From Candidatus Saccharicenans sp. (GTDB lineage Bacteria > Acidobacteriota > Aminicenantia > Aminicenantales > Saccharicenantaceae): a stretch of DNA of 64,000 bases. The stretch lies in assembly GCA_024653215.1 (NCBI GenBank), contig JANLFU010000002.1, positions 147,337 to 211,336 of the forward strand, read 5' to 3'. Both the position numbers and the translations under genes were made by a program. Shown in pieces: positions 1,175-21,271 of this stretch; positions within the stretch are counted from its first letter, which is position 1; each line of letters starts with the position of its first letter. The notes below the pieces were generated by a model. The model was not told the origin of the DNA. It saw only the letters and a list, made by a program, of their open reading frames with translations, and did not search any database.

Positions 1175-2059
1175 TTAAATGTTGTTAGCTTTTGTCAATT
1201 CAGTTTGGATTTCTTTCAAGGTTCTTCCCGAGGCATCCTTCCATTCGGTTCTTCCATTTGATTCATTTCCCAACACTATGCTTGCTGCCGCAGAGGGAGA
1301 ACTGAAAAGATAGTCTTGAGATAGCTGGTAATATTTTCCTTTATCTACAAAAACACCACTATCAATGAGCGCTTTTCTTATATATCTTGCATATCGGCTT
1401 AACGAAGGTACCTCTTCTTTAACAGCCATTGAATTAGCACAAACCACAAAGCCTTCAGCGCTCTCATATCCTTCTGCAGTTATTCCTTTAGATTTTATAA
1501 ACAGCTTTATGACATTCTTCACATGAGGTTTTGGCTTTTCGAAAAAGTTAATGCCAAGAACGGGCAGGCATGTCAACATTTCAGATAGAAAAGTTTCTAC
1601 ATCTACCGTATCTGCTTCTGATAAAGTTGGTAGCTGAGGAATATTACCATTATCAAGCACACATCTCTTGGCATCAGCGGCTAATGATATTAGTCTTGCC
1701 TCTAGGTACTGGACATGTGCCTTATTTAAATTGAGATCTTTGCTAATGTATACAATTGCATGTGTCCAGAAATCTTTATTTCGCATATGCTGATCGAGGC
1801 GGGGTAAAACCGGATCGCCTTCTCCAACATATATCCTTGGAAAGGAGTCTTTTTCTCCGGGGCCCATTAAAATATATACCCCTGTTTTTTTGAGTTCCTC
1901 TCTTTTACGGGCTTCAGCGAATAGTGCCCTTGGAAATGATATTCCTTGACCGGTCCAGTTTGATTTTTCGATTATTTTAATTCCGTCAGGTTCTCCTTGA
2001 GGCATAAATATTTTCAAGGAAAAACCTAATTTTGATTTATGCACTTCTTTCATTTTCAT
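1175..2059 (-). CDS. GIY-YIG-type nuclease family protein with DUF4357-like C-terminal domain
   Basis: 294 aa. It has a GVYILMG...RIYVGEGDPVLPRLDQH...FW motif block (GIY-YIG-like) and the C-terminal FSSPSAAASIVLGNESNGRTEWKD block typical of DUF4357. AT-rich, with a GGAGG Shine-Dalgarno upstream. Confidence 0.65.
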   Translation of the reverse strand: MKMKEVHKSKLGFSLKIFMPQGEPDGIKIIEKSNWTGQGISFPRALFAEARKREELKKTGVYILMGPGEKDSFPRIYVGEGDPVLPRLDQHMRNKDFWTHAIVYISKDLNLNKAHVQYLEARLISLAADAKRCVLDNGNIPQLPTLSEADTVDVETFLSEMLTCLPVLGINFFEKPKPHVKNVIKLFIKSKGITAEGYESAEGFVVCANSMAVKEEVPSLSRYARYIRKALIDSGVFVDKGKYYQLSQDYLFSSPSAAASIVLGNESNGRTEWKDASGRTLKEIQTELTKANNI

Positions 2060-2357: not shown

Positions 2358-2684
2358 ATGAGCGTTAAGAAGTTAATAGGACAACTTAAAGAAAAGAAAA
2401 AAAGAAATGAGAAGCTTCAAGAACTCAGGGCTGAAGAGGTTGAGAATATAATAGAGTTTTTTTTCGAGAAATATGAGCATAAGAGAGGTTCTCATATTAT
2501 TGTTCAGGACTCTCGATTAGAGAGATATGGGGAAATTAATCAATTGAGTGAGTATGGGCGGCTCGGGCAGTTAACTATACCCGTAAAGAGCGGGCAGAAA
2601 GTGAAATCTGTCTATGTAAGAAAATTAATCGAGGCTATAGAAATTTGTGAATTTATGGAGGGAAAAAGTGAAGAGGAAGATTGA
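2358..2684 (+). CDS. hicA: HicA-family toxin (mRNA interferase-like), N-terminally extended
   Basis: 108 aa. The pattern ...KRGSHIIVQD...LTIPVKSGQKVKSVYVRKLIEAI matches the HicA/YcfA signature (GSH ... IP ... basic patch). It lies directly upstream of, and overlaps, a HicB-like gene. Confidence 0.6.
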   Translation: MSVKKLIGQLKEKKKRNEKLQELRAEEVENIIEFFFEKYEHKRGSHIIVQDSRLERYGEINQLSEYGRLGQLTIPVKSGQKVKSVYVRKLIEAIEICEFMEGKSEEED

Positions 2685-3213
2685 AAAAAAAGATTTAGAA
2701 TATTACATGAAGCTGAAATATAAAATAGAAATTGTGCCGTTATCTGAAGAAGACGGGGGAGGATATGAAGCGAGGATCCCCCAGCTCGGGAAGGAAGCAT
2801 TTAGGGGATACGGTGAAACTGTCGAAGAGGCCCTGGGCCACCTAGAAGTTGTAAAAAAAGACCTATTTGAAAGGTACCTGAATAAGAGAGTTCCGATCCC
2901 AGAACCAGAGCTGAAAGAGGAAAAGTACAGTGGCCGGATTCTTCTGCGTATTCCGTTTTATTTGCATAGAGAATTGTCAGCGCTGGCGAAAAAAGAAGAT
3001 ATAAGCCTGAATCAGCTTCTTAATCATCTGATAGAGCGCGGCCTGGCTTCAGTTCGATATGATTTTCATGTTGAAGCTTTATCACAAATAAAGCCGGAAA
3101 TTATAGGTAAATGGGAAAAATGTATATTTGAGATAGATCAGAAAACTGTTCCGGAATCTTTATTTCATTATCATGGCGAATCTATAGATTTTGACAATAA
3201 ATCGGTTTGTTAG
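2668..3213 (+). CDS. hicB: HicB-family antitoxin (HicB N-domain + RHH DNA-binding domain) with a ~50-aa C-terminal extension
   Basis: MKLKYKIEIVPLSEEDGGGYEARIPQLG...GETVEEAL is HicB-like. YSGRILLRIPFYLHRELSALAKKEDISLNQLLNHLIERGL is RHH/CopG-like. The GTG at 2668 is preceded by GGAGGG (2657-2662). Alternative starts are GTG 2647 and ATG 2707. Confidence 0.65.
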   Translation: MKRKIEKKDLEYYMKLKYKIEIVPLSEEDGGGYEARIPQLGKEAFRGYGETVEEALGHLEVVKKDLFERYLNKRVPIPEPELKEEKYSGRILLRIPFYLHRELSALAKKEDISLNQLLNHLIERGLASVRYDFHVEALSQIKPEIIGKWEKCIFEIDQKTVPESLFHYHGESIDFDNKSVC

Positions 3214-3669: not shown

Positions 3670-3914
3670 ATCAGATTATCAACTGATCTATATTGATAAA
3701 GATAAAAAAGGTCAGATTGCTTTTTTCAATATAGAATATGATTAGAAGCGGGGCAAAGGTTAAATGCTTAAAATCTCTGCTCTCAAGACTTATAGGGGCA
3801 ATTTATCTCAACCACAAGGAGAATTATTGCTCATGATTTTGCTCCTGGTGCTTGAACAAATTGAACATTTAACCATATACTGATTAGAAAAGATGGCGAT
3901 GTTTTTTTAAGGGA

Positions 3915-5951
3915 GTGTCCGCTATGGAAAATGGTCAGTTAACCTGGATTACCAATTTCATTTGGGGTATTGCCGATGACGTGCTGCGCGATCTATATGT
4001 GCGCGGCAAGTACCGCGATGTTATCCTCCCGATGACTGTGATACGCCGGCTCGATGCCGTGCTGGAACCCACCAAGCAAGCGGTCCTGGAGATGAAAGCT
4101 TCACTCGATAGAGCAGGTATAACTAATCAGGATCTTGCTCTCCGCCAGGCTGCCGGACAAGCGTTTTACAACACATCGAAATTCACTTTACGTGATCTAA
4201 AGGCGCGTGCCAGTCGCCAGCAATTGGAGACGGATTTCCGTGCCTACCTGGACGGCTTCTCGCCTAATGTTCAGGAGATAATCGAGAAATTTGAATTTCG
4301 CAATCAAATCCCCCGCCTTAGCAAAGCCGATGCTCTGGGCACACTCATCGAAAAGTTTCTCGACCCATCCATCAACTTAAGCCCATACCCAGTGCTCAAC
4401 AGCGATGGTTCTGTGCGACTCCCCGGACTTGATAATCACGCCATGGGCACCATTTTCGAAGAACTGGTGCGGCGATTCAACGAGGAAAACAACGAAGAGG
4501 CAGGTGAACACTGGACCCCCCGCGATGCCGTGAGGCTGATGGCCCGCCTAATCTTTGAACCCATCGCTGAGAAAATTACCGATGGCACATATTTGCTTTA
4601 CGATGGGGCCTGTGGCACAGGCGGAATGCTCACCGTGGCTGAAGAAACACTAATCAGACTGGCAAAAGAACGCGGGAAACAGGTCTCGGTACACCTTTTC
4701 GGTCAAGAAATCAATGCAGAGACCTATGCTATCTGCAAAGCCGATCTGCTCCTGAAAGGAGAGGGGGAGGCTGCTGACAACATTGTTGGTGGACCAGAAT
4801 ATTCAACACTTTCGAACGATGCCTTCCCTGGCAGAACCTTCGACTTCATGCTCTCGAATCCGCCTTATGGGAAGAGCTGGAAAAGTGACCTGGAACGCAT
4901 GGGGGGCAAAACCGGCATTAAAGACCCGCGCTTTGTTGTACAGCACCAGGGCGAAGAGCTGTCTCTAATTACTCGCTCCAGTGATGGACAGCTTCTCTTT
5001 TTAGTGAACATGCTTTCCAAGATGAAGCATGATACCCCGCTCGGAAGCAGGATTGCCGAGGTGCACAATGGGTCATCGCTGTTTACTGGAGATGCCGGCC
5101 AGGGCGAGAGTAACATCCGACGCTGGATTATCGAAAACGATTGGCTTGAAGCCATCGTGGCCCTTCCACTCAATATGTTTTATAACACCGGCATTGCCAC
5201 GTACGTTTGGGTGCTAACCAACCGCAAGCCCGAGCACCGCAAAGGCCGCATCCAGCTAATCGATGCCACGCAGTGGTACAAGCCGTTGCGAAAAAATCTG
5301 GGCAAGAAAAATTGTGAGCTGTCTGAAGAAGACATCCGTCGCATCGTGGATACTTTTCACAAATTCGAGCAAAACGAGCAGTCAAAAATCTTTCCCATCG
5401 CTGCCTTTGGGTACTGGAAGATAACGGTAGAACGCCCCTTGCGCTTGAAAGGCATCGACCCCGAGCGTGAATACAGTGCTAAGGAGATTAAAGCACTTCG
5501 CGAAACTGCAGAGCGAGCTGATGATGCCCCACCATTGATAAAAAAGATTCACAAGCCCGGCACTGCACCCGATCCACTTCGCGGGCTGTTCGAGGTGACC
5601 ATTCACGGCAAATCGCGCGTAGTAGAATACGAACCGGATACGGAGCTCCGCGATAGCGAGCAGATTCCCTTCCTGGAATGCTCTGCCTGTCATCAGCCTG
5701 GTTATCTGCCGAACCTGGAAGACCGCCGGGCAGCCATAGAAACTTTCTTGCGGCGGGAAGTCCTGCCTTATGCACCGGATGCCTGGTATGTTCCAGAAAG
5801 TATCAAGGTGGGTTACGAGATTAATTTCAACCGCTATTTTTATAAGCCAAAAGCTTTGCGCAGCCTTGAGGAAATCCGCGCCGACCTTTTAGCGGTTGAA
5901 AAAGAGGCGGAGGGGCTTCTTAATGAAATAATGAAGGTAGCCGCAAAATGA
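3915..5951 (+). CDS. hsdM: Type I R-M DNA methyltransferase subunit M (N6-adenine)
   Basis: AdoMet motif YDGACGTGGML and catalytic LSNPPYGKSW. The HsdM_N-like N-terminus reads WGIADDVLRDLYVRGKYRDVILPMTVIRRLD, and the C-terminus has VGYEINFNRYFY. The start could instead be ATG 3924. Confidence 0.9.
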   Translation: MSAMENGQLTWITNFIWGIADDVLRDLYVRGKYRDVILPMTVIRRLDAVLEPTKQAVLEMKASLDRAGITNQDLALRQAAGQAFYNTSKFTLRDLKARASRQQLETDFRAYLDGFSPNVQEIIEKFEFRNQIPRLSKADALGTLIEKFLDPSINLSPYPVLNSDGSVRLPGLDNHAMGTIFEELVRRFNEENNEEAGEHWTPRDAVRLMARLIFEPIAEKITDGTYLLYDGACGTGGMLTVAEETLIRLAKERGKQVSVHLFGQEINAETYAICKADLLLKGEGEAADNIVGGPEYSTLSNDAFPGRTFDFMLSNPPYGKSWKSDLERMGGKTGIKDPRFVVQHQGEELSLITRSSDGQLLFLVNMLSKMKHDTPLGSRIAEVHNGSSLFTGDAGQGESNIRRWIIENDWLEAIVALPLNMFYNTGIATYVWVLTNRKPEHRKGRIQLIDATQWYKPLRKNLGKKNCELSEEDIRRIVDTFHKFEQNEQSKIFPIAAFGYWKITVERPLRLKGIDPEREYSAKEIKALRETAERADDAPPLIKKIHKPGTAPDPLRGLFEVTIHGKSRVVEYEPDTELRDSEQIPFLECSACHQPGYLPNLEDRRAAIETFLRREVLPYAPDAWYVPESIKVGYEINFNRYFYKPKALRSLEEIRADLLAVEKEAEGLLNEIMKVAAK

Positions 5952-8900
5952 AGGCTAAAATAGATTTTCCTGTTCGCCACATTTCCATTCGCGTCCCTTG
6001 GCATGACTCAGGATGGACTGGTGTCGTTTGCCGTGCACCCCACCTGAATGGTGCCTGTGCCAGGCTCAAGCGGATTGCTGATAACAAGAAAGAAGATCAG
6101 GAGCGCCTTATCGCCGGAAAACGTTTGGATGAATTACCCAGGGAGCAGTGGCCGTGTTGCGTGGATGAGCGATCCACTTTTATGGCGGAGTTTGAGCTGG
6201 AGGTTCTTAAGAAGCATGCCCTGGCAGAAATTAACCCAGATCAATATGGCCATTTCAAGCCGACACCGCAACGTTATCCGGCATATTCTGCCGGAATAGT
6301 TCCTTTTCAATGGATGATGCGACCGAACATAAATCATTACGGTAACCTTTATGATCTGGATGTTGACGAGGGCCGAGAGCCCAAACTGGGCTATGAGAGC
6401 AACTGGATTCATGAATTCCGAAATCAAAGGGCACTTCTAGAAGGTTTTGCCGCTCATTTGCGTGAAGAGGAATCGCTCTGTCTGTTCTATGCCAAGCACG
6501 TTCCCTTTGCAGAGGGTACGGGCCGAGTATTAATAGCGGTTGGACGAATCAACAAAATCGGCGAACTGATTGAGTACAATCGTGAGGGCCATGGTCCACC
6601 CGGCATGGTGTGGGAACGCCCGATTCAGCATTCCATCCGCCCAAAAGGTAACGACGGCTTCCTGATGCCTTACTATGAAGTTCTGGACCGTGCTGCGCAA
6701 GATAGCTCTCTCGATATGGAACGGTATACTGCTCGCGTTCCTGAAGAGCACTGGGATGAGTTCTCTTACGCCAGTGAATTGGTCACCAATGACGGTGCCA
6801 TTGGTGCTCTACTCTCAATGGACGCGGTGCTTGCTCGAATTGAAAACGAATTAGGAGTCGCAACTGGAGGGCAGCGCAAGTGGCTTCACGATGAACTTGT
6901 GCGCCTGTGGAAAGTACGTGGCCCATTCCCTGGTTTGGGAGCTGTTCTAACATCATTTGGCATGTCGCGAGGCTTATTCGTGGCTCATGCCATCCAGCAG
7001 AAAGCCGGAAAGAATGCTGATCCATGGCCACTTGTGGACAGGGCATTTTGCGAGCCGTCTTCTGTGCTGCCAAAAGAATTGCAACGTGATCTCAAGGAAC
7101 TCTGCCCGACTTGGAAAGGTCTCTCTGAAGAACGTCGTGACTTCCTGCGTCTGATAAGCCGATTTGAGATAACCGTAGAACAGGCCGAGAATCTTTATGA
7201 TGAAGATTCAAGAAAGAGGGCTGGATGGGGTGGCACTGACCGCGAAATACTACAAAACCCCTATCGTATCTTTGAGCTCAGCCGTCATGACTTTGAGGGA
7301 GTAAAGCTGTTGACAGTAGATCGCGGTGTTTTTCCTGATGATACCGTTCGGTTGCTGCATCCACTGGAAGAGCCATCCCGGCTGTGCTCGGCTGTTGATT
7401 GGCGGCGTATTCGAGCCTTTGCCGTCGCGGCCTTAGAAGATGCTGCTCTAAATGGTCATACCTTATTACCCAGGGACAAAGTCGTTGAGGCGATACGCAG
7501 TTATCCGATTAAACCCGAATGCCCCGTTACAAGTGACATCCTCACTGCTAACTCCAAGAATATGACGCCGGAAATTGTTCCGGTTGAGCTGGATGGTGAA
7601 AGCGGTTTTCAACTCGAAAGATACAAAAAAATCGGCGATGAAGTGCGCCGCCAGGTTCTTGGACGCCTTGCAGGTGGGCGGCATGTCGTCAAAGGCGACT
7701 GGAAAGCTTTGCTTGATGAGAAATTTGGTATTGCGAAGGACGATGAGGAGAAACGCGCCCGTGAAGAGAAAGCAGCTGCGCTGGCTGAGTTAGCAGAGGC
7801 ACGCTTCGGTGTCCTTGTTGGATCAGCCGGTACAGGAAAAACCTCTCTCTTGGGAATTCTTTGTGCTCAGCCAGAGATCAAAAAAGACGGTGTGTTGCTT
7901 CTTGCACCAACAGGGAAAGCTCGCGTCAGAATGCAAGAGCTGGTGGGTGCTGGGGCAAAAGCAATGACGATTGCTCAGTTCCTAAACCAGTGGAGTCGCT
8001 ATGATGGACGAAACGGGCGATATCACGTTAGCGATGGACCTAAAGCGAGCGGCTATGGCACAGTCATTGTGGATGAGTCATCTATGCTGACTGAAGACAT
8101 GCTAGGCGCAATATTTGATGCATTGCAAGGCGTTAAACGGTTCATCTTCGTTGGCGATCCCTCGCAATTACCGCCCATAGGGGCAGGGAAACCCTTTGTT
8201 GATATCATCGCCAAGATCCGCCCTTCTGACTGTGAGAGGCGATTCCCTCGCGTAGGCCCTGGTTATGCTGAACTCACGATTGAACGACGCCAGGGGGGGC
8301 AAGACCGTCCAGACCTGAGACTGGCGCGCTGGTTTAGCCTCTCACCTCCATCAGCTGGCGATGACGATGTATTCTTTGATGATGCGAAAGAGCATCCGAC
8401 AATTCGGTTTATCGAATGGAAGAAACCTGAAGATTTTCAGACCAAATTGCTGGAAGTGCTGGTACAGGAGCTCAAACTTTCCGGGATAGAGGATATACGG
8501 GGATTTAACAAAGCGATGGGGGCAACGGTCACAGAGAAATATGATTACTTTAACCCAACCCGCAATGGCAAGGTCAGTGCGGTCCAGGCAGTTGACGCAT
8601 GGCAGATCCTCAGCCCTTTGCGGGGCATGCCATTTGGCGTGGGCGATATCAACCGCCAAATTCACGAACGTTTCCGGGCTGGATTTCTAGAACTCGCAAG
8701 CCGGCATAGGCGTCATATTCCAAAGCCATTTGGAGCAGAGCGAATCGTTTATGGCGATAAGGTCATCAATTTGAGCAACCATCGTAGAGATGGCAAAAAA
8801 GTGTATCCCCAGGAAGGCGCGATAGGTTATCTTGCCAACGGCGAGATTGGCATCGTTGTCGGTCTGTGGAAGACAAATGGAAATCCAAAAATTCTAAAAG

Positions 8901-9646
8901 TCGAGTTCTCATCACAGCCCGGCTTTACTTACGATTTTTATAGTAACGATTTCGAAGAGGAAGGAGACCCGGTGTTGGAACTTGCCTATGCGCTTACCGT
9001 TCATAAGGCGCAGGGCAGTCAGTTTCGTCTTGTAATACTCGTCCTGCCAGAAGGTCACCCGATCATGTCAAGGGAGCTCGTTTATACCGCGCTTACCCGT
9101 CACCAGGACAGGATCGTGGTGATGCACCAGGGCCCACTAACCATACTAAAAGAGTTATCTGCTCCCCATCGTTCCGAGACCGCCCGTCGCATGACAAACC
9201 TGATGCAGCCGTGCAAGATGCTAGAGTTCCCACAAGCCAGGGGTAGCCTGTTTCTCCAGGAAGGTTTGATCCATCGCACCCGCAAAGGACTGGCCGTGCG
9301 CTCCCGTGCCGAAGTCATCATCGCAGACGCCCTGACCGACGCCAATGTCTCATTTGAATACGAGAAACCGCTTATGCTTGGCGGTTCAACCCGATATCCA
9401 GATTTCACCATTGAGGATGAAATCTCAGGCCGGACCTACTACTGGGAACATCTTGGGCTGCTCCATCGCGCTGACTACAGACGCAGTTGGAATGAGAAAC
9501 TCAAATGGTATCGAGATCACGGTATAAAACCTCGTGAGGAAGGCGGCGGGGTGAACGGCACACTGATCATTACCCGGGACAATGCTGATGGAGGAATTGA
9601 TTCACAATCGATTGCCAAAATCATCAAGGAGGTCTTCGGTGGCTGA
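5948..9646 (+). CDS. 1232-aa protein: unknown Cys-rich N-domain + RecD2/AAA_30-type SF1 helicase + PD-(D/E)xK-like C-domain
   Basis: The ATG overlaps the hsdM stop (ATGA, 5948-5951). Motifs: RecD2-type NPYRIFEL region, Walker A GSAGTGKTS (~7821-7847), VIVDESSML, FVGDPSQLPPIG (~8146-8185), TVHKAQGSQF. The C-terminal AEVIIADAL...YPDFTIED...YYWEHLG (~9300-9460) is restriction-endonuclease-fold-like. I recognise no family for residues 1 to ~330 (ISIRVPWHDSGWTGVVC...C...CC). Confidence 0.75.
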   Translation: MKAKIDFPVRHISIRVPWHDSGWTGVVCRAPHLNGACARLKRIADNKKEDQERLIAGKRLDELPREQWPCCVDERSTFMAEFELEVLKKHALAEINPDQYGHFKPTPQRYPAYSAGIVPFQWMMRPNINHYGNLYDLDVDEGREPKLGYESNWIHEFRNQRALLEGFAAHLREEESLCLFYAKHVPFAEGTGRVLIAVGRINKIGELIEYNREGHGPPGMVWERPIQHSIRPKGNDGFLMPYYEVLDRAAQDSSLDMERYTARVPEEHWDEFSYASELVTNDGAIGALLSMDAVLARIENELGVATGGQRKWLHDELVRLWKVRGPFPGLGAVLTSFGMSRGLFVAHAIQQKAGKNADPWPLVDRAFCEPSSVLPKELQRDLKELCPTWKGLSEERRDFLRLISRFEITVEQAENLYDEDSRKRAGWGGTDREILQNPYRIFELSRHDFEGVKLLTVDRGVFPDDTVRLLHPLEEPSRLCSAVDWRRIRAFAVAALEDAALNGHTLLPRDKVVEAIRSYPIKPECPVTSDILTANSKNMTPEIVPVELDGESGFQLERYKKIGDEVRRQVLGRLAGGRHVVKGDWKALLDEKFGIAKDDEEKRAREEKAAALAELAEARFGVLVGSAGTGKTSLLGILCAQPEIKKDGVLLLAPTGKARVRMQELVGAGAKAMTIAQFLNQWSRYDGRNGRYHVSDGPKASGYGTVIVDESSMLTEDMLGAIFDALQGVKRFIFVGDPSQLPPIGAGKPFVDIIAKIRPSDCERRFPRVGPGYAELTIERRQGGQDRPDLRLARWFSLSPPSAGDDDVFFDDAKEHPTIRFIEWKKPEDFQTKLLEVLVQELKLSGIEDIRGFNKAMGATVTEKYDYFNPTRNGKVSAVQAVDAWQILSPLRGMPFGVGDINRQIHERFRAGFLELASRHRRHIPKPFGAERIVYGDKVINLSNHRRDGKKVYPQEGAIGYLANGEIGIVVGLWKTNGNPKILKVEFSSQPGFTYDFYSNDFEEEGDPVLELAYALTVHKAQGSQFRLVILVLPEGHPIMSRELVYTALTRHQDRIVVMHQGPLTILKELSAPHRSETARRMTNLMQPCKMLEFPQARGSLFLQEGLIHRTRKGLAVRSRAEVIIADALTDANVSFEYEKPLMLGGSTRYPDFTIEDEISGRTYYWEHLGLLHRADYRRSWNEKLKWYRDHGIKPREEGGGVNGTLIITRDNADGGIDSQSIAKIIKEVFGG

Positions 9647-11042
9647 TAAGCCTGACATCGGAAACCTCAAGCCCTATCCCGCTTACAAAGACTCCGGGGT
9701 GCCATGGCTGGGCCAGGTGCCTGCGCATTGGGCGGTGGTGCGCTTGGGGGCCCTTCTGCGAGAACGCATGGAGTTTAACGATGATCTCCGTATTACCGAA
9801 GTTCTCTCAGTAACAAAACATCGGGGAGTAATTCCTTATAAAGAAAAAGGAAACATTGGAAATAAAAAGTCGGATGATATAACACGTTACAAAATTGTAA
9901 GACCAAATGACATTGTCGTTAACTGCATGAACGTGATCATTGGGTCTGTAGGATTGTCCAGACAAACAGGGTGCTTGAGTCCTGTATATTACGTACTCAT
10001 GCAGAGAACCGAAAATGATAATATTCTTTATTTAAACGCATGCTTTCAAACAAAACCATTTCAAGAAAGCCTTATCCGAATTGGTAACGGCATTTTAGCC
10101 CATCGTATGCGTATTCCGATGGAACTCTTGAAATGTGAGCCGTTTCCAAGACCCGCTGCCGAGGAACAGACCGGCATCGTCCGCTTTCTCGATTACGTGG
10201 ACCGGCGGATACGACGAGTGATCCGGGCGCGGCAAAGAAGGGTCAAGCTCCTTGAGGAATACAAGCAGGCACTCATCCACCAGGCTGTTACTGGCCAGAT
10301 CGATGTCCGCACCGGCAAACCCTATCCTGCTTACAAAGACTCCGGCGTGGAGTGGCTGGGCCAGGTGCCTGCGCATTGGGAGGTTAGGCGATTAAAATGT
10401 ATATGCCGACTTATTTATGGTGATGCATTACCGGAAGCATCTCGAAAAGATGGGGGGGTACCAGTATATGGTTCGAATGGTAGAGTTGGGTTTCACGATG
10501 TATCCAATACGCATTCACCTTGTATTATCTTAGGAAGAAAAGGGTCTTTCGGAAAAATTCAGTATTCTGATGTACCTGTTTTCGCAATTGATACAACTTA
10601 CTTTGTCGATAGCATAAACACAACGGTTAATTTAAGATGGCTTTTCTTTGTTCTTAATTGTGTGCGTCTGGATGAGGTATCTAAAGACTCCGCTGTCCCT
10701 GGTTTAGATCGTGAAGATGCCTACAGATGTTTATTACCTTTACCTCCTAACCCCGAACAAAATGCTATCGTAGAATACCTCAATGTTCTTACAGCTAAGA
10801 TCGATACAGTCATTGCCGCCTCTCAACGAGAGATTGAGCTTCTGCGAGAGTATCGCGAGCGAATCATCGCCGATGTCGTTACAGGCAAGGTGGATGTGCG
10901 TGAGGTGGCGGCAAAGTTACCTGAGGAGCCACCAGAGGAGATTGAATTGATGGAAGAGGATGAATTAGCCGAGAGTAAGGAAGAAAATCGGGAGGAAGGC
11001 GATGGCTTTACAGAAGAAATATCTGAGGAGGATGACCGATGA
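9639..11042 (+). CDS. hsdS: Type I R-M specificity subunit S (two TRDs)
   Basis: The repeated conserved block KPYPAYKDSGV(P/E)WLGQVPAHW precedes each AT-rich target-recognition domain. The central and C-terminal coiled-coil conserved regions read EYKQALIHQAVTGQIDVR and EYRERIIADVVTGKVDVR. GTG 9639 overlaps the upstream stop (GTGGCTGA). The listed ATG 9582 would overlap by 65 nt. Confidence 0.9.
   Translation: MADKPDIGNLKPYPAYKDSGVPWLGQVPAHWAVVRLGALLRERMEFNDDLRITEVLSVTKHRGVIPYKEKGNIGNKKSDDITRYKIVRPNDIVVNCMNVIIGSVGLSRQTGCLSPVYYVLMQRTENDNILYLNACFQTKPFQESLIRIGNGILAHRMRIPMELLKCEPFPRPAAEEQTGIVRFLDYVDRRIRRVIRARQRRVKLLEEYKQALIHQAVTGQIDVRTGKPYPAYKDSGVEWLGQVPAHWEVRRLKCICRLIYGDALPEASRKDGGVPVYGSNGRVGFHDVSNTHSPCIILGRKGSFGKIQYSDVPVFAIDTTYFVDSINTTVNLRWLFFVLNCVRLDEVSKDSAVPGLDREDAYRCLLPLPPNPEQNAIVEYLNVLTAKIDTVIAASQREIELLREYRERIIADVVTGKVDVREVAAKLPEEPPEEIELMEEDELAESKEENREEGDGFTEEISEEDDR
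9669..9732 (+). repeat. hsdS internal direct repeat, copy 1 (64 bp)
   Basis: aagccctatcccgcttacaaagactccggggtgccatggctgggccaggtgcctgcgcattggg. About 58/64 nt are identical to 10317..10380. Confidence 0.9.
10317..10380 (+). repeat. hsdS internal direct repeat, copy 2 (64 bp)
   Basis: aaaccctatcctgcttacaaagactccggcgtggagtggctgggccaggtgcctgcgcattggg. Confidence 0.9.
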
Positions 11043-14000
11043 AACCAACCGACACCAGCGAAGCCGGGCTTGAGAGCCTGATCTGCCGGGCACTTACCGG
11101 CAGTGATTGCCTGCCCCGGCCCATCGGGACCTCATCAGCTGTTGGTGAAACACCGGCGCCCTCCAGCCATGCGGGCTGGATTCCTGGTGACCCTTCTGAT
11201 TACGATCGGGAGTACTGCGTTGACTTAGTTCAGCTTTCGGCCTTTCTCCGCTCAACTCAGCCTGAAGTCGCTGAAGCTCTCGACCTGAACAATGACAGCC
11301 CTACGCGGCGTAAGTTTCTGGCTCGGCTGCAGGGTGAAATTAGTAAGCGCGGCGTGGTGGATGTATTGCGCAAGGGAATTCAACACGGGCCATACAGCAT
11401 CGATCTTTTCTACGGTACACCTTCTCCTGGAAATGAGCAGGCCCGAGCGCGGTATGAACAAAACCGCTTCTCTGTTACGCGACAACTCCGATACAGCAGA
11501 GAAGAAACGCAGCGGGCGCTGGACATTGTGCTATTTATCAACGGTTTGCCGATTTTTACATTTGAGCTCAAAAATCGCCTCACAAAACAGACTGTATATG
11601 ATGCTATCGAGCAATACAGGCGTGACCGTGACCCGCACGAAAAATTATTTGAATTGGGGCGTTGTTTGGCGCACTTTGCGGTTGATGATAATGAGGTCTA
11701 TTTTTGCACACACCTTAAGGGTAAGGCGTCCTGGTTTCTGCCCTTCAACAAGGGATGGAATGACGGTGCCGGAAATCCACCAAATCCAAATGGCATAATG
11801 ACCGATTATCTCTGGCGGCAGGTTCTCAGCAGAGAAAGTCTGACCAACATCCTGGAAAACTATGTACAACTCATTGAGGAAAAGGACCAAACAACAGGCA
11901 AGAAGCGGAGGAGGCAGATCTTCCCCCGCTATCACCAGCTTGATGTAGTGAGAAAACTCTTAGCAGATGTGGCGGCGAATGGAGTCGGCCGAAGGTATCT
12001 CATTCAGCATTCTGCCGGGAGCGGTAAATCTAACTCCATTGCCTGGCTGGCCCACCAGATGATTGGCCTCGAAAGGGAAGGTAAGCCCATTTTTGATTCT
12101 ATTATCGTTGTAACCGACAGGCGGATCCTGGACCAGCAAATCAAGGACACGGTCAAACAATTCGCTCAGGTGAGTGCCACGGTTGGGCATGCCGAGCGTT
12201 CTGGCGACCTGCGGCAGTTTATCGAGAGCGGAAAAAAGATCATTATAACAACGCTTCAGAAGTTCCCGTTTATCCTTGATGATATTGGCAACGAACATCG
12301 CAACCGCAACTTTGCCATAATAATCGACGAAGCACACTCGAGCCAAGGTGGCCGCACCACAGCCAAAATGCACAAGGCCCTGTCCAAGGCAGGTCAAGAG
12401 GGCGATGATGAGACATTTGAAGATAAGATAAATAGATTAATAGAGGCTCGGAAGCTTTTACCTAATGCCAGCTACTTTGCCTTCACTGCTACGCCGAAGA
12501 ACAAGACACTGGAGATGTTTGGTAAACCCGACCCACAACCTGACGGCACGATCAAACACAGACCTTTTCATTGCTATACCATGAAGCAGGCGATCCAGGA
12601 AGGATTTATCCTGGATGTACTGGCTAACTACACGCCGATAAAGAGCTACTACAAACTTGTCAAAAAGATCGAGGACGACCCGGAATTTGATGTAAAAAAA
12701 GCGCAAAAGAAGCTACGCAGATTTGTGGAAAATCACGATTATGCTATCCGGCTCAAGGCCGAAATAATGGTTGACCACTTTCATGAACAGGTGATTGCGA
12801 AAGGCAAGATTGGTGGTCAGGCCAGGGCGATGGTTGTGACCGATGGAATAGAGAAAGCAATTCAGTATTTCCATGCCTTTCAGGCTTACCTGGCCGAAAG
12901 AAAAAGCCCCTATCGGGCCATAGTTGCTTTCTCCGGCGAGCATGATTTTGGCGGGCAAAAGGTTACCGAGGCCAGTCTTAATGGCTTCCCTTCGAACCAG
13001 ATTGCTGACAAGATTCGGGAAGAGCCTTATCGGTTTTTAATCTGTGCTGATAAATTTCAGACGGGCTATGATGAGCCCCTTATGCATACCATGTACGTGG
13101 ATAAAGTATTATCCGGTGTCAAGGCAGTACAGACACTTTCGCGTCTTAATCGTGCCCATCCCCAGAAACATGACACATTCATCCTGGATTTCATCAACGA
13201 CCCGGAGACGATCCGGATGGCTTTTGAACCGTACTACAGAAGCGCTATCCTCGCTGACGAGACCGATCCAAATAAGTTGCACGACCTCAAAGGTGAGCTT
13301 GACCGTTATGAGGTATATGCCTCTCAGCAGGTTGATGAACTGGTCAAGCTATACCTTGGCGGGGCAGACCGCGACAAGCTCGATCCCATCCTGGACGGTT
13401 GTGTGGCGAGATATGTCGAGCTCGATGAGGACGGTCAAGTTGATTTTAAGGCTAAAGCCAAAGTGTTTATTCGTACATATAGCTTCTTGTCCTCCATTCT
13501 CCCATACACTAATGCTGCTTGGGAGAAACTATCCATTTTTCTCAATTTCCTTGTACCCAAGCTGCCGGCACCGAAGGAAGAAGATTTATCCAAGGGCATT
13601 CTCGAAGCTATCGATATGGACAGCTACCGGATCGAGAAGCAGGCGAGCATGCGGATCATTCTTTCAGATGAAGATGGTGAGATAGAACCTGTACCCGGTA
13701 TGGGCGGAGCACGCAAGCCAGAACCTGTACTTGATCGTCTTTCGAATATCATCAAGGCTTTCAACGAACAATTTGGTAATATACCCTGGAGTGACGCCGA
13801 TCGGGTCCGGAAGCTGATCATTGAAGAGATTCCAGCTCTTGTGGCAGCGGACACTGCTTATCAAAATGCACGAAAGTATTCTGATAAACAGAATGCCAGA
13901 ATAGAGCACGATAAAGCACTTATTCGAGTAATAACGAACCTGTTCAAAGATGATGCCGAACTATTTAAGCAATTCAGCGACAATGAATCGTTCCGACGGT

Positions 14001-14053
14001 GGCTGACGGACACAGTATTTTCATTGACTTACAGCCAGGCTGGTAACCAGTGA
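11039..14053 (+). CDS. hsdR: Type I restriction endonuclease subunit R (SF2 translocase + N-terminal nuclease)
   Basis: The ATG overlaps the hsdS stop (ATGA, 11039-11042). Nuclease motif DIVLFINGLPIFTFELKN, Walker A HSAGSGKSNS, DEAH box IIIDEAHSSQ, then TATPKNKT and QTLSRLNR. Confidence 0.9.
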   Translation: MKPTDTSEAGLESLICRALTGSDCLPRPIGTSSAVGETPAPSSHAGWIPGDPSDYDREYCVDLVQLSAFLRSTQPEVAEALDLNNDSPTRRKFLARLQGEISKRGVVDVLRKGIQHGPYSIDLFYGTPSPGNEQARARYEQNRFSVTRQLRYSREETQRALDIVLFINGLPIFTFELKNRLTKQTVYDAIEQYRRDRDPHEKLFELGRCLAHFAVDDNEVYFCTHLKGKASWFLPFNKGWNDGAGNPPNPNGIMTDYLWRQVLSRESLTNILENYVQLIEEKDQTTGKKRRRQIFPRYHQLDVVRKLLADVAANGVGRRYLIQHSAGSGKSNSIAWLAHQMIGLEREGKPIFDSIIVVTDRRILDQQIKDTVKQFAQVSATVGHAERSGDLRQFIESGKKIIITTLQKFPFILDDIGNEHRNRNFAIIIDEAHSSQGGRTTAKMHKALSKAGQEGDDETFEDKINRLIEARKLLPNASYFAFTATPKNKTLEMFGKPDPQPDGTIKHRPFHCYTMKQAIQEGFILDVLANYTPIKSYYKLVKKIEDDPEFDVKKAQKKLRRFVENHDYAIRLKAEIMVDHFHEQVIAKGKIGGQARAMVVTDGIEKAIQYFHAFQAYLAERKSPYRAIVAFSGEHDFGGQKVTEASLNGFPSNQIADKIREEPYRFLICADKFQTGYDEPLMHTMYVDKVLSGVKAVQTLSRLNRAHPQKHDTFILDFINDPETIRMAFEPYYRSAILADETDPNKLHDLKGELDRYEVYASQQVDELVKLYLGGADRDKLDPILDGCVARYVELDEDGQVDFKAKAKVFIRTYSFLSSILPYTNAAWEKLSIFLNFLVPKLPAPKEEDLSKGILEAIDMDSYRIEKQASMRIILSDEDGEIEPVPGMGGARKPEPVLDRLSNIIKAFNEQFGNIPWSDADRVRKLIIEEIPALVAADTAYQNARKYSDKQNARIEHDKALIRVITNLFKDDAELFKQFSDNESFRRWLTDTVFSLTYSQAGNQ

Positions 14054-14150: not shown

Positions 14151-15299
14151 TTATATACTTAAGAACTGACTAAAGCTCATATTTAAATTGAGCTCTTTTA
14201 ATATAGACATTACGGTTCCTACAGGGATATCTTTTGTATGTTTTGGGATAGGTATTCTTTTGCCACTAGATGATTGCCAAATTACATGAGAGCCGTTGCC
14301 TTGTCTTTGAAGCTTTATGTTTTTAAGCTTTTTGAGCTTTTTTATGAGCTCTTTGTATCTTATTGATCTGATATGTTTAGGAACTATATTCCATATCATA
14401 GATTTACTATTTATCAGATAGCAAACCTGGTCGATTCGGATTAAAGGAGTAAGGGCATGGGTAAACATTGTCCATATTTCTTTTGACCTATAATTAGAGG
14501 AAATGGCATATTTCATTAAATTATCGATGAAAAGTAGCTGATATTCTTGTTCTTGTTGATTAGTGTAAATATCATATGCTTTCCTATAACCAGGAGGGTT
14601 TCCTTTTACATATAAAAGCAGAGCTTCTAAAAGATTATATTTTTCCGTTTTTTCAGAAACATTATTATTAATATAGTCAAAAGTTTTACTGATTAATTTT
14701 ACGTTTGCCAGTGCTTCTTCAAGACAATCGTCTTTATCAGCTGTTTTGGCATAATAATCATTAAAAGCAGTAACATAGATCTTTTTCATGTGGGTTAATT
14801 CTAATTTAGCTGCAAAGCTTTCAACAGCACTATGAAATGCCTCGTGATAAAATAACGCATGCATTGCTATTTTAGGGAAATATTTTATATCAGGTAAATT
14901 TTTAGTTGGGTAAAGCTTGATTAAGCGCTGAGCAAGTATAAATATTCCTTCCAATGATATGTATATGCCCCATTTATCCGGGTAGTACTCATGGAATGGA
15001 AGATAAAAAGCCAAGGCATCAGGGGGTGGAGTTACGTCTCCTTTTGGAAGGGGGACGGGGCTTCCTGGCTTCTTAATTTTAGCTCCAAAAACGCTTAAAT
15101 CAAATAGCGGCTCCGAAAAAGTTATGTTATTAATTGCAAAATATTGGCTTTCAAATAATTCTTGGAATAGTCCATCGAAATCCAAGTTATCGGGGGACAA
15201 GATAATCCAATTGGAATCTTCGCTTTGAGGGAAATTTTTCAGTGAAAATACCTCTGGTAAATCTTGGTAAAGGGCATCAATCTTCTTTTGGGTATCCAT
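14151..15299 (-). CDS. Fusion protein: ~310-aa HExxH domain (possibly ImmA/IrrE-like) + C-terminal HicA-like domain
   Basis: 382 aa, about 30% GC. HEAFH is encoded at 14832-14846, followed about 35 aa later by CLEEALAN (compare the ExxAN of M78 peptidases). The C-terminal ~65 aa, QGNGSHVIWQSSSGKRIPIPKHTKDIPVGTVMSILKELNL, match the HicA/YcfA signature. GGAGGAATTATTA precedes the ATG. No HicB-like ORF is adjacent. Confidence 0.55.
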   Translation of the reverse strand: MDTQKKIDALYQDLPEVFSLKNFPQSEDSNWIILSPDNLDFDGLFQELFESQYFAINNITFSEPLFDLSVFGAKIKKPGSPVPLPKGDVTPPPDALAFYLPFHEYYPDKWGIYISLEGIFILAQRLIKLYPTKNLPDIKYFPKIAMHALFYHEAFHSAVESFAAKLELTHMKKIYVTAFNDYYAKTADKDDCLEEALANVKLISKTFDYINNNVSEKTEKYNLLEALLLYVKGNPPGYRKAYDIYTNQQEQEYQLLFIDNLMKYAISSNYRSKEIWTMFTHALTPLIRIDQVCYLINSKSMIWNIVPKHIRSIRYKELIKKLKKLKNIKLQRQGNGSHVIWQSSSGKRIPIPKHTKDIPVGTVMSILKELNLNMSFSQFLSI

Positions 15300-16099
15300 T
15301 AATAATTCCTCCTAAAATAAGGCATTTTTAAGGATAAATTAATTAGTCAAAATCATTAATTTTGTCAATAAGATGAACTCTTACCGGTTGTGCCGGTTTA
15401 ATATTTAATTTGGTATTGTTGAAAATTGTTCAAAATATATCATCAGCATTCTATTGATTTTCAATATCATTTTGCTGAATGAGCCAGCGACCGTTATGAA
15501 ACCTTGATGAATGTTTCTGGCCTGATATAGGTACAACCTTTAGCCCACTATCATTAAATAAGAGGCGAGAAGCCTCTGGTGCGAGCACAGAAGGAAATAC
15601 TCCTACCAACAGGTTCCTTAGTTTATCTTGCTGATGCCCTTATAAATCATATTGGTGGAAGAGATACATCGTTTGCCGACCTTCATAAAGCTTATAGGGC
15701 CGAATAGAATCTCGCAGGCCTTTCCCCGGGCAGCTAATAGCTTTAAGAGGTTAGTATATTGGTTTAGCCAATCAAGTCGGCACCAAAGCTTGACTGAAAT
15801 ATTAAAGAATTTGAACAGTATAAATATAAAAATTAATCTGTAAATTATATAAATATCACCCTTAAAATCATCGGAGGGGGTGATGAAATCAATAATCAGC
15901 ATTATTTATCTTTTTTGTGATTTTATTTCGCTCTAATGGGCACAAATGGGCAGAGATTGCATACCTCAGCTATCTGGTGTGATTGATGTTATGTGCGGGA
16001 ATGTGAACGAGTTGGTTGATCAGACTGCTGAATGTTGTCCTTTCAATACCATTTCTTTGCATTAGCAATATCTGTAAAAAATGCTATTGGAGTTTGCTA

Positions 16100-19000
16100 A
16101 TGATTGATCTGGAAAGTCGCATTATCCAGGCACTTGAAGCCAGACCTGGACAGAAAGCTAGTCAACTTGCCGATTCCCTTGGCGTTGACAAGAGACGGGT
16201 GAATTCATTGCTATATAATTCACTGAAAAGTCTAGTACACCAGGATCAACACTATCGCTGGTATCTAAGAAAGTCATCTAAGAATGACAAACAGAGCGAT
16301 GAAAGCCCAAAACGCTTGGATACACCTCTCGCCAAGCTTTGCGCATACTATTTGGATTGTTTGAGTTACGATGACTTGGGTGGGATTAGCGAATTTGCTT
16401 CCTCATTATATGGCCAACCTGCTTATATTGAGTTGGCCTCATTGCCGATTTTAGATAAAGGCGGTACAGATCCTTTCGACTCGGAAAGCGGACGGAAACT
16501 TCTCAAAAGTGTTAGACGAGATAAAAATAGACAAATGATCTTGCTGGGATATCCAGTACTTCTAAATCTGATACGTTCTAATAAGTCGGACTGGGAAGGA
16601 TTTAAAGTAGAGCCAATCTTTCTCTTCTCATATCAAATGGATGCCGGCAAAGACTCGAAGCCCACGCTGAGCGATGACTTGCCGCAGATCAATTTTCGAG
16701 CATTACGCTCTCTGCTGGGCACAGGCGAAACGAACTTGATGGAGGAGGCTATTCAGCTTGCTAAAGAGCTTGGACTGGGAAATATAAATGGTGAACAGCC
16801 TGATCTGGATGAGTTGTTCGTACGACTACGAGAAATCCGTCCAGAATGGAGCTGGCAAGAGGAAATAGATCCCTATGTCCTTAGCAATGGCATTCCGCTG
16901 GCCGACTTGAAGGAGCCAGGTATTTACAATCGTGCAATTCTCGTTGCGGCCGAGCGCTCTCCATACACAAAAGGATTAGAATCAGAGCTCGCAATGTTAC
17001 AGTCAGTCGAAGAGAACAATTATCGCCAGACATCGCTTGGAAGTTGGCTTACGAGACAAAAAATTGAATCACCGCCCTCTGACCAACAGGTACTCTTAGA
17101 AGTTCTGCCGTTGAATAGTGAGCAGCGGCAAGCTGTAAGGCAGGCTCTCTCAAATCCTTTGACGGTCATTACTGGCCCACCTGGAACCGGTAAGTCGCAG
17201 GTTGTTACATCGATCCTCATTAATGCCGCATGGCAAGGAAAATCCGTTTTGTTCGCCAGTAAAAATAATAAGGCTGTTGATGTCGTGCATACCAGGGTCA
17301 ACTCGCTAGGGCCGCGCCCCGTGTTACTTCGACTTGGGGCGAACGATTACCAGGCGCAACTCTCAGATCACCTAACATCTTTACTCGCTTCTTCTGCAAC
17401 TGAGGAAGATCACGAGCGATACAACAAATACAAGGCTGATCATATAGAACTATTGAAGAAATCAGATGCTTTAGATAGGGCTTTTCAGGAATTGGTGCAG
17501 CTTCGAAATGAAGTTGATGCTCTTGAGCAGCGTGTCGAGCAGTCAAGGCGCGACATGGGAGAGGAAATCTTTGCGCGGACCAGGTTTATAGATAGGAAAG
17601 AGTTGGATATATTGTCAACACGCGTACTTGAAAATATAAATCAAGCAGACAGGGCTAAACAATCCTTTTTTGTAAAATTTCTCTGGCCCTTCGTCAGAAA
17701 AAAGCGATTCAAAAAATTGAATTTGGCCATTCTTTCTTTCCGCGAAATGGCATTAAGGCTGGGCCTGCCACTACCTGAGAGGGCTGTGGATTCAACCACG
17801 ATTAATGAGTGGATTGACTATGGTTCAAAATTAGTTAATAGAATTTCTCAAGTAGCAGAAGCCCAACAGTATTTCAATAAACTAGATTTGCTTAGCAATG
17901 GCCATACCATTGAGGAGCTAAGTCGGTTACGGAATCAGCTCACCAAGGATTTATCCGTCAACTCAAAGGAATTGTGGCAGGCATGGCTGCGAATTCAGCC
18001 GGCTCGCTTAAATCCCGAACAGCGCAAGCTAATTGGCGAATACAGTTCACTGCTTCAGATGATTGTATTTGCAAATGAACAGAACCGTCAGTTGGACCGG
18101 GATGTGCTACGGCGGTATAACCAGCTATTCCCACAGATAACATCAATCCTTCCATGTTGGGCCGTTACATCACTTTCCACTCATGGGCGCGTACCTTTCG
18201 AGCCGAACTACTTTGACCTCCTCGTGATTGACGAGGCCAGCCAGTGTGATATCGCCTCTGCAATTCCTCTTTTATACAGAGCCCGCCGAGTCGTCGTGAT
18301 CGGAGACCCGATGCAGCTCCGGCACATCAGCACCCTGTCCAAACAACAAGATCAGCAATTATTGAGCAAACACGAGTTAACTGATGGCTATCTGGGATGG
18401 GCTTACTCGACTCGATCATTATTTGATCTCGCCAGCAGCCTTTGCCGGAGTGAGGACATAGTCGACCTGCGCGACCATCATCGTTCACATGCGGATATTA
18501 TTAATTTCTCAAATGAGATATTTTATGAGGGCCGACTTCGGGTGGCGACACGTTATGACAACTTGCGCCGCCCTAGACCTGATGAGCCAGCAGTGCGGTG
18601 GATTCACGTTGAAGGAAAAACCATACGTCCAAAAACAGGTGGAGCCGTTAATCAAGAGGAAGCCCGCCGGGTTGTTGATGAGCTCCAACGCCTGTTAAAC
18701 CAAGGGTATAGGGGTAGTGTAGGTGTAGTCAGTCCATTTAGGGCACAAGCTAATTTAATCCGGGATTTGGTATTTCAAAATGAAAATCTAAGCTCAAGGC
18801 TGTCCAATCTAGACTTTCTAGTAGACACTGTCCACAAATTTCAGGGAGACGAAAGAGACGTGATGATATTTTCCCCTGTGGTGTCGATAGGAGTTCCCGA
18901 CACAGCTTTGGGCTTCCTTAGAAGTAATCCGAATCTTTTCAATGTTGCCATTACCAGGGCGCGAGCTGCTCTTGTGGTTGTCGGGGACCACATGGCAGCA

Positions 19001-20414: not shown

Positions 20415-21271
20415 TATAAATCTCCTAAAAGTATGTTTCGATGGATGCTTATGTACATAATAAAATCACTATATTTTCTTCTAATTATCGTGTCTAGTTA
20501 TATTAAGTGAGTTTGTTTTATCTATTTATTAAGTTTAAATTTATAATAAGAATTCACTAAATAGAAGTCAAATATGAATATTTTTGTATTATAATATTAT
20601 TTCAGGTTACGTAGAGCGATGTAGAGTAAAAAGCTAGTTAATAAGATGTGCCCATATATTATTGTCAGCTAATGCCTAAAGTAATAGTTCAGAAATTGGA
20701 TTAGTGCCCAGTTTAAAAGATCCATGTTATTTTGGTCACATTTATAATTAAAAGCGAGATTCATTCGATAACTATTGTTTAAAAAAATCTTGAAAGAACG
20801 ATATATATGTCATCAATAATTAAGGGCTCCTATTGAAACAGAAGGGGTAAGCTGAAGTTTAAAACCTTGCTTTCAATTACAAGCATTTAGTAGGGAGATT
20901 GGTTAGCCCTTGATATATACTCCTGTTATGAGTGATACCCATAATCATTATAGCAGAGGGTGCATATTCTTATGTCACGTTATTAAAAAAATAATAATCT
21001 TAGATCAAGAGCCTTAACATAATCGTCCAGAATATCATAGAGTGTGTAGATATTAGATAAAGTTTGGTGATACTCTCGAAAAAGGATATCAAAAAACTTT
21101 CTCGCAAGATAAGCGATTTTAATTGCTTTTATAAATGCGTATACAAAGCAAAACAAAAATATAGTAAGATCTGCGAAACTTCAAAATTATAATATTTGTA
21201 GTCAAGTTTTTTGATAATTGCCCGATTTTTGATATATATATTTTAATCATTTTAAAAAAGGAGGGATATAA

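Follow-up and report, generated by a model that had tools for sequence, protein, structure and literature searches.

In a 64,000-nucleotide stretch of contig JANLFU010000002.1 from Candidatus Saccharicenans sp. (hereafter the window), positions 3924-14053 of the plus strand form one intact Type I restriction-modification (R-M) operon with hsdM, hsdS and hsdR, in which a gene for a 1232-aa protein, here called X, is nested between hsdM and hsdS. X combines a RecD2-like helicase core with a predicted C-terminal nuclease, and the genomic contexts of its homologues lead us to conclude that it is probably an autonomous, mobile helicase-nuclease effector that is co-expressed with the R-M enzyme as a second layer of defence, and not a dedicated Type I subunit.

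The gene order hsdM, X, hsdS, hsdR, the three overlapping junctions and the even base composition described in the initial annotation of this stretch were all borne out by the open reading frames (ORFs), the junction reads and the GC content. Four long ORFs fill 3915-14053 of the plus strand (3915-5951, 5948-9646, 9582/9639-11042 and 11039-14053). The first two are joined by ATGA at 5948-5951, X and hsdS by the 8-nt overlap GTGGCTGA at 9639-9646, and hsdS and hsdR by a further ATGA at 11039-11042. GC content ranges from 0.47 to 0.55 over 4001-14000 (about 50%) and from 0.30 to 0.36 in the flanks, and the lowest value within the R-M/X block, 0.43, lies at the second target recognition domain (TRD) of hsdS. 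In a consensus scan, the only promoter-like site that fits the gene layout is found upstream of hsdM, a candidate sigma-70-like promoter on the plus strand at 3852..3881 (TTGAAC-18-TATACT, 9/12 matches), and a consensus scan of the operon for internal promoters and terminators returned none that was convincing at the gene junctions, with counts near the shuffled expectation. The overlapping stop and start codons mark the four genes as an operon, probably with translational coupling. The initial annotation had deduced stoichiometric co-expression of X with the R-M subunits; the operon and its probable translational coupling stand, but stoichiometry does not follow from the overlaps. Because stop/start overlaps are common in operons, they do not by themselves exceed chance; what makes them meaningful is that they are kept in related cassettes in which HsdM, X and HsdR are only 67-88% identical.

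All three R-M subunits were identified by domain and family profiles. The methyltransferase subunit gene hsdM (3924..5951, plus strand, 675 aa) encodes HsdM_N (PF12161, 4.3e-23) and N6_Mtase (PF02384, 1.2e-52) domains according to Pfam and matches PADLOC MTase_I PDLC03029 with 807 bits. Its start had been placed at GTG 3915, which we correct to ATG 3924 as the most likely start: position 3915 falls within the Shine-Dalgarno-like AAGGGAG at 3909-3915, the ATG begins 8 nt after this motif, and the gene call of the source metagenome also begins at 3924. The specificity subunit gene hsdS (9639..11042, plus strand) encodes two TRDs, which match Pfam Methylase_S and, over the full length of the protein (residues 11-449), PADLOC Specificity_I profiles such as PDLC03174; in the translation, a KPYPAYKDSGV(P/E)WLGQVPAHW repeat precedes each TRD. 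Its most likely start is GTG 9639, as proposed initially, rather than the ATG at 9582 that opens the longest ORF and would overlap X by 65 nt, since an AAGGAGG motif lies at 9626-9632, 6 nt upstream of the GTG, and the resulting 8-nt overlap is kept in two related loci (L088 and L005, see below). The gene for the restriction and translocase subunit, hsdR (11039..14053, plus strand, 1004 aa), has GAGGAGG 7 nt upstream of its ATG, and its product carries HSDR_N (1e-20), SWI2_SNF2 (4e-29), ResIII and T1R_D3-like domains in Pfam. It also matches PADLOC REase_I and TIGR00348 (2.2e-64), the latter with 218 bits and thus below the subfamily cut-off of 284 bits.

X itself (5948..9646, plus strand) had been described as a gene not recognized among known accessory genes of Type I loci. 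It is in fact a full-length member of a catalogued family, PADLOC PDC-S68: the profile PDLC05065 matches with E = 0 and 1521 bits, aligning residues 8-1230 of X to positions 4-1219 of 1221, and the sibling models PDLC05066 and PDLC05064 match as well. The PDC families go back to a collection of genes found within BREX, DISARM and Type I R-M loci, from which 145 'phage defence candidates' were curated (Payne, Hughes, Fineran & Jackson 2024, bioRxiv 10.1101/2024.01.29.577857). Only nine candidates, all embedded in Hma, were tested in that study, and seven of the nine were active on their own (Payne et al. 2024). X follows the family hidden Markov model from end to end, and its embedding in a Type I R-M operon is the very situation that defines the family, so that there is no difference at the family level and the locus is an instance of the published 'guilt by embedding' generalization. 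Papers that validated PDCs covered other families (S01, S02, S05, S09, S27, S70 and M05); the X protein is not described in the BREX-diversity paper or in the EVE/DCD paper, and the CMoRE paper deals with an unrelated GIY-YIG enzyme.

More than 1500 homologues of X were scored, the best 120 of which all share at least 67% identity with it and come from Pseudomonas, Acidobacteriota, Chloroflexota, Planctomycetota, Betaproteobacteria and Methanoregula. A second PDC-S68 clade is 42% identical to X and 73-89% identical internally across Bacteroidota, Deltaproteobacteria, Pseudomonas and Pseudothermotoga. By these comparisons the gene is conserved to a degree unusual among defence genes, a pattern that suggests both strong constraint and frequent transfer in recent times.

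The protein consists of three parts, namely a 480-aa N-terminal domain, a RecD2-like superfamily 1B (SF1B) helicase core and a C-terminal predicted PD-(D/E)xK fold; the N- and C-terminal parts were modelled separately with AlphaFold2 (AF2). The designation as a RecD2-like helicase with a nuclease domain, already made in the initial annotation, agrees with the intact helicase motifs and with the structural matches of the C-terminal model. The helicase core (residues ~484-1057, 7397..9118, plus strand) was identified with Pfam, TIGR01448 and PDB 3e1s and has both RecA-like domains. Pfam detects AAA_30 (8e-25), AAA_19 (3e-21) and UvrD_C_2 (2e-11) as well as a weak SH3_13 match. Walker A (GSAGTGKT, 7820-7843) and Walker B (VDESSM, 8069-8086), both on the plus strand, are accompanied by the further SF1 motifs VGDPSQLPPIGAG, ALTVHKAQGSQ and VYTALTRH, all of them intact; neither the two Walker motifs nor motifs III, V and VI vary within the PDC-S68 family. 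The core aligns with RecD2 of D. radiodurans (PDB 3e1s, 9.5e-27, a motif-level alignment) and with RecD of E. coli RecBCD at the SF1B motifs and over part of the N-terminal accessory region. X differs from RecD2 in its extra 480-aa N-terminal domain, in its C-terminal nuclease and in occurring in defence rather than repair contexts. With 186 bits against TIGR01448 (7.5e-55), far from the equivalog cut-off of 500, X is RecD2-like and not RecD2, and we rejected orthology to RecD or RecD2 because the scores stay under the equivalog cut-offs. A relaxase or conjugation helicase was likewise rejected, as TraA/TraI matches extend only over the shared SF1B ATPase and lie far under their cut-offs.

The predicted C-terminal nuclease domain (residues ~1100-1232, 9245..9646, plus strand) was recognized from an AF2 model of the last ~175 residues, built on a 47-sequence alignment, and from Foldseek comparisons. 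The model has a predicted local distance difference test (pLDDT) score of 82, exceeding 90 over the core, which has the alpha-beta-beta-beta-alpha-beta fold of restriction endonucleases. Its best match is the Bax1 nuclease (8e-4, probability 0.99), and further matches are the restriction-like endonuclease (RLE) of the R2 retrotransposon, Card1/Can2/Cdn1, XisH and Hjc; probabilities for Bax1, R2 RLE, Card1, Cdn1 and XisH are 0.97-1.0. Candidate catalytic residues are E1122, E1139, D1152 (in PDF), E1167-H1168 (in WEH) and K1184. E1139, P1151-D1152, W1166-E1167-H1168 and K1184 do not vary over 77 diverse members, and E1122 hardly does; E1122, P1151-D1152 and E1167 are placed in the expected PD-(D/E)xK elements, although the third-strand triad departs from the canonical one (see below). 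Weak matches to Pfam TPD (PF14811) were found in 33 of these 77 members, and weak matches to Uma2, Vsr, Phage_endo_I and DUF790 (Bax1) in single members.

Bax1 belongs to the archaeal helicase-nuclease pair XPB-Bax1, and its likeness to X is confined to the fold of the nuclease domain (15-20% identity, template modelling (TM) score ~0.4); unlike the C-terminal domain of X, Bax1 is a separate protein, which partners a superfamily 2 (SF2) helicase in repair. X also shares its general design with the single-protein defence systems Hna, Nhi, Hhe and Mokosh type II, which direct a nuclease, joined to a helicase that uses ATP, against the nucleic acid of the invader. The PADLOC matches of X to Nhi are only marginal (8.5e-5), and Hna, Hhe and Mokosh gave none; its helicase is RecD-like rather than Upf1-like or SF2 as in these systems, and its N-terminal domain is unique.

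That domain (residues 1-480, 5948..7387, plus strand) is family-specific, with a mixed alpha/beta region (~1-280) followed by an all-alpha region (~281-480), and is presumed to be a sensor or regulator. Among the residues shared by at least 90% of sequences are H11, R15, W18, H19, D20, W23, C28, C37, E74, R75, H90, H102, K183, R193, W222 and H228; C71 is invariant and makes up, with C28 and C37, the conserved Cys residues of the domain. No Pfam match was obtained in any of the 77 diverse members, even at E <= 5, no PDB relative was found by sequence or profile search, and Foldseek of the AF2 model (pLDDT 78) against BFVD returned nothing. An exhaustive search detected the domain in 1355 representative clusters; of the complete proteins in the best 150 listed, nearly all show the ~1250-aa architecture.

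Foldseek against the PDB gave weak EVE/YTH-type, PUA-like matches to the N-terminal model (probability <=0.51), which bear on the idea that X is a modification-dependent, Type IV-like enzyme. Here a PUA-like reader of the EVE/YTH/ASCH type would direct the helicase-nuclease to hypermodified phage DNA, so that X would complement a Type I enzyme blocked by modification in the way that TgvAB and BrxU do. The recurring matches are indeed all PUA-like (MJECL36 2p5d with probability 0.51, several YTH domains, and PH1033 1wmm), and the embedding of Type IV systems in R-M or BREX loci is well established: TgvAB of V. cholerae VPI-2 and BrxU are GmrSD-type Type IV nucleases nested in Type I R-M or BREX loci, where they provide independent and complementary coverage, and TgvAB works without HsdR restriction activity. 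These enzymes are built from DUF262/DUF1524 domains, which are unrelated to the RecD-like helicase and PD-(D/E)xK domains of X, and modification dependence, which has been demonstrated for TgvAB and BrxU, is in the case of X no more than a weak hypothesis. The structural matches themselves are weak (E >=0.06, TM-score <=0.35 normalized to the target, root-mean-square deviation 9-12 A), none of the 77 members gave an EVE, YTH, ASCH or SRA signal in Pfam at E <= 5, and the PDB profile search was empty. To our knowledge, three conserved Cys together with several conserved His are not a feature of EVE/YTH/ASCH-type readers. We thus regard a Type IV-like function as very unlikely.

The relation of X to its host operon was assessed from the genomic contexts of its homologues. 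A scan with the X alignment over one genome per species (~185,000 species genomes) detected at least 587 loci in bacteria and archaea, 80 of which were analysed for neighbours within 10 kb of X. Genes of the hsd type occur near X in 13 of the 80 loci. They flank it on both sides in five; in the other eight, flanking on both sides was not demonstrable, although three of these are cut by contig ends and are probably embedded, so that X is embedded in 5 to 8 of 80. Other R-M or helicase clusters lie near X in 33 loci and comprise Type III Mod/Res, Type IIG/ISP/MmeI-like enzymes, SNF2/DrmD-like helicases, DUF4391, TmtA/sacsin ATPases and Drt1a. In the remaining 34 loci no R-M or helicase neighbour was recognized, a count that is an upper bound because neighbours were defined with a simple ORF caller and BLAST clustering. 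In 37/80 loci a same-strand upstream partner lies <=30 nt from X. The initial annotation had asked whether linkage of the M-X-S-R type (letters for hsdM, X, hsdS and hsdR) is conserved among homologues, and we ran this comparison: linkage to hsd genes is enriched, but it is not preferential in the sense intended there, given 13 loci in 80. As a family, X is, judged by these neighbourhoods, promiscuous and often independent of hsd genes.

Even where X is linked to hsd genes, its position is not fixed. It is embedded in the operon of the window and in L005, L047, L057, L062, L072, L073 and L088. The order M-X-S-R is seen in the window, L047, L039, L088 and L005; M-S-X-R in L062; M-S-giant-X-R in L057 and L073; and M-S-u-X-giant-R in L072. 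X follows hsdR in L031 and L048 (M-S-..-R-X) and precedes it in L043 (X-R-..-M). Such variation among Type I operons points to repeated nesting events rather than to a fixed fourth subunit. In every context the architecture and length of X (~1225-1290 aa) are alike, and no hsd-specific adaptor domain was found. An 80%-identical homologue is solitary among metabolic genes of the sulfatase and peptidase kinds, and 73%-identical copies sit after an SNF2 helicase. The P. syringae homologue is not embedded and lies ~1.7 kb upstream of a separate BrxR/SNF2/methyltransferase/Res cluster. On the B. cereus plasmid pMRY14-0057_1 (L094, 8983-12738) a homologue with 43% identity is located between a site-specific integrase and the DISARM genes drmA/DUF1998, and on a V. 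fluvialis IncC plasmid (L095, 8968-12621) a solitary homologue with 32% identity adjoins a qnr gene. The B. cereus megaplasmids, P. syringae and the V. fluvialis IncC plasmid are culturable sources of X, and the two plasmid-borne copies are possible experimental models.

These contexts also bear on whether X is a guard of the R-M complex in the manner of PrrC. Accessory genes inside Type I loci, for which the initial annotation had cited prrC and rlo, are established precedents, to which TgvAB and BrxU can be added; PrrC in EcoPrrI (Type IC), RloC and the Campylobacter rlo genes resemble X in being extra defence genes inside a Type I hsd operon. A PrrC-like X would be held latent by HsdM/HsdS and released by Ocr, ArdA or Stp-like anti-restriction proteins, leading to abortive infection through DNA degradation. 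The prrC gene embedded in the EcoPrrI locus provides the precedent, and the placement of X between hsdM and hsdS with translational coupling, as well as its co-divergence with HsdM and HsdR in one lineage (see below), would be in line with such a role. PrrC, however, is almost exclusively embedded in Type I R-M (Payne et al. 2024), whereas X lies mostly outside Type I loci, with near-identical architecture when solitary and when next to unrelated R-M types. In addition, the position of X relative to hsdM, hsdS and hsdR is not fixed, and embedded copies carry no domain of their own. The two proteins have no domains in common either: PrrC pairs an ABC-ATPase with a tRNA-targeting anticodon nuclease that the R-M enzyme keeps latent, while X pairs an SF1B helicase with a DNA-nuclease-type fold, and neither an ABC-type ATPase nor an anticodon-nuclease domain was detected in X with Pfam, NCBIfam or PADLOC. 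We consequently regard a PrrC-like guard as very unlikely. Of the two roles offered in the initial annotation, that of a second-line effector survives, but that of an effector guarded by the R-M complex is disfavoured by the low hsd linkage and the missing adaptor domain.

Within the lineage of the window, by contrast with the family as a whole, X and the hsd genes have stayed together. L088 has the M-X-S-R cassette with its overlaps at 88% (HsdM), 82% (X) and 84% (HsdR) identity to the window, and so does the archaeon Methanoregula (L005) at 73%, 67% and 67%; in L047, the corresponding values are 38%, 47% and 39%. The 8-nt overlap between X and hsdS is conserved as GTGGTTAA in L088 and as ATGCCTGA in L005. 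HsdM, X and HsdR diverge in parallel in the M-X-S-R lineage and HsdS diverges freely. Taken together, the sequences identify the M-X-S-R cassette as an old, co-transferred unit in this lineage, and the persistence of its order and of its 4-nt and 8-nt overlaps during the parallel divergence of HsdM, X and HsdR argues that co-expression has been selected. The M-X-S-R operon family seems to be a recurrent nesting site. A gene for an FRG-domain protein is located between hsdS and hsdR in L047 (15122-16030), and a gene for a 315-aa protein with no Pfam match occupies the same place in the Methanoregula locus L005 (15099-16046).

Co-inheritance from bacteria to archaea with conserved overlaps would also fit a role of X in processing the ends made by restriction. 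X would then need breaks, or stalled or collided motors, from Type I, Type III, ISP or SNF2-type enzymes and would processively degrade the cut invader DNA, a RecBCD-independent clean-up that blocks repair and recombination and resists phage inhibitors of RecBCD. RecD-family motors act at DNA ends, and the core of X matches both RecD2 and RecD. The partners identified in tight coupling with X are, moreover, usually restriction enzymes or motors that depend on ATP, namely HsdM/S/R, Type III Res/Mod, Type IIG/ISP/MmeI-like, SNF2/DrmD-like or TmtA/sacsin-type proteins. Against such a dependence, X is often solitary or away from any recognized R-M genes, and it is also tightly coupled to the non-restriction defence genes Drt1a and AbiEii. 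As other R-M systems of the cell could supply the ends, solitary copies only weaken the idea, and we judge an end processor of this kind to be unlikely. In a further reading, which we consider quite unlikely, X is no passenger but would be dedicated to working with translocating restriction enzymes that use ATP as a whole class (Type I, Type III, ISP/IIG and SNF2-associated systems). Its Cys/His-rich N-terminal domain would recognize what these enzymes produce, either a form of DNA or a state of the motor (for example a double-strand end, an extruded loop or a translocase that has stalled or collided), and then switch on processive degradation by the RecD-like motor and the PD-(D/E)xK nuclease. 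If true, X would represent a 'post-restriction degradosome', a layer of defence that is new and has been transferred widely, and its sensor domain would define a new family.

Our preferred interpretation remains that X is an autonomous effector that acts beside the Type I enzyme. Autonomy is indicated by an architecture that does not vary, by the large number of solitary copies, by the changing place of X in Type I operons and by the published activity of most tested embedded candidates on their own. Several observations weigh against this interpretation. The number of copies without a recognized R-M neighbour may be overestimated by the way in which neighbours were called. Where tightly coupled partners were identified, most of them are restriction enzymes or motors driven by ATP, a hint of functional dependence rather than mere co-residence, and the long parallel divergence of HsdM, X and HsdR in one lineage would also fit a physical or functional partnership with this HsdM/HsdR family. 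The third-strand triad of the nuclease domain reads E-H-L and thus does not contain the canonical Lys of (D/E)xK, so that catalytic competence of the nuclease is a prediction; K1184, which is invariant and lies in the helix that follows, might take the place of this Lys. The N-terminal domain, 40% of the protein, has no assigned fold. Finally, no published name, functional test or mechanism was found for any PDC-S68 member, including in a full-text search on 'PDC-S68'.

Based on this interpretation, we propose that X would be a self-contained, horizontally mobile helicase-nuclease effector that would load onto the DNA of the invader and, in the manner of RecD2-type motors, probably do so at free ends or at 5' single-stranded tails. 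It would translocate with ATP as a 5'-3' SF1B motor, cut with its own nuclease and act beside the Type I enzyme as a second immunity layer rather than as part of it. By being nested in the operon, X would share regulation and transfer with the R-M genes, and synergy may result as well, because cleavage by the R-M enzyme creates DNA ends that X could use. What we infer for X is its activity against phages, its substrate and polarity, what its N-terminal domain does and that it is independent of HsdMS.

The family is large and widespread, it is 67% identical between the bacterium of the window and Methanoregula, and 40% of the protein is unannotated, which makes the locus one of moderate interest. 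Being co-inherited and coupled, the M-X-S-R locus is well suited for asking whether nesting serves only shared regulation and transfer or whether X uses the products of the R-M enzyme, DNA ends, and for asking what the N-terminal domain senses. Should X turn out to be just another autonomous helicase-nuclease, it would add one more validated system to a long list.

Several additional features were noted among the loci that carry X. In Bacteroidota-type Type I operons, a giant protein of ~2300 aa, with an N-terminal sacsin/HATPase_c_3 region and a C-terminal AAA_11/AAA_12 helicase, is co-embedded with X and tightly coupled to it (L057 3072-10001, L073 3127-9996, L072 12395-19345 and L068 7679-12940); the M-S-giant-X-R operons then carry a YgjP-like gene. 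Drt1a, a reverse-transcriptase/nitrilase protein (PADLOC, 1267 bits), is encoded directly upstream of X with gaps of -14 to +13 nt in L017 (4217-7978), L021 (6232-9987), L028 (6211-9999) and L075 (7767-9974), and the order in L021 and L028 is SNF2, Type IIG/ISP, Drt1a, X. An HsdR in L031 (6427-9981) and a Type ISP-like restriction-methylase in L021 (2303-6235) each carry a LexA-like Peptidase_S24 domain as a C-terminal fusion, which suggests that these restriction enzymes are controlled by self-cleavage or by the DNA-damage response.

In the window, the R-M operon is part of a mosaic island at ~1.1-24.5 kb, composed of modules with 30-35%, 44% and 50% GC in a backbone of 52-59% GC and bordered just upstream by an IstB/IS21-helper-like gene. 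The low-GC segment immediately upstream of the operon encodes a DUF4357 protein that matches PADLOC PDC-S14 (1175-2059, minus strand, 9.5e-104) and is a further 'guilt by embedding' candidate, followed by a HicB-like gene (2647-3213, plus strand). Downstream of the operon lies a gene for an unusually long, 382-aa protein in which only a C-terminal HicA_toxin domain is recognizable (14151-15299, minus strand). A second helicase-nuclease defence candidate is found 2 kb downstream of the operon (16016-19444, plus strand), a Mokosh/Hhe-like 1142-aa protein that joins an SF1 helicase (AAA_11/AAA_12) to a Vsr-like nuclease (DUF559/MTES_1575) at the C-terminus and in PADLOC matches MkoC (5.9e-64), MkoA, PDC-S37 and Hhe. 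The reading of X as a defence gene draws also on this island context, namely PDC-S14, the HicA/HicB-like genes and the Mokosh/Hhe-like helicase-nuclease. The last block of the island (20000-24500, 31-32% GC) contains a gene for an 807-aa pentapeptide-repeat protein (22106-24529, minus strand).

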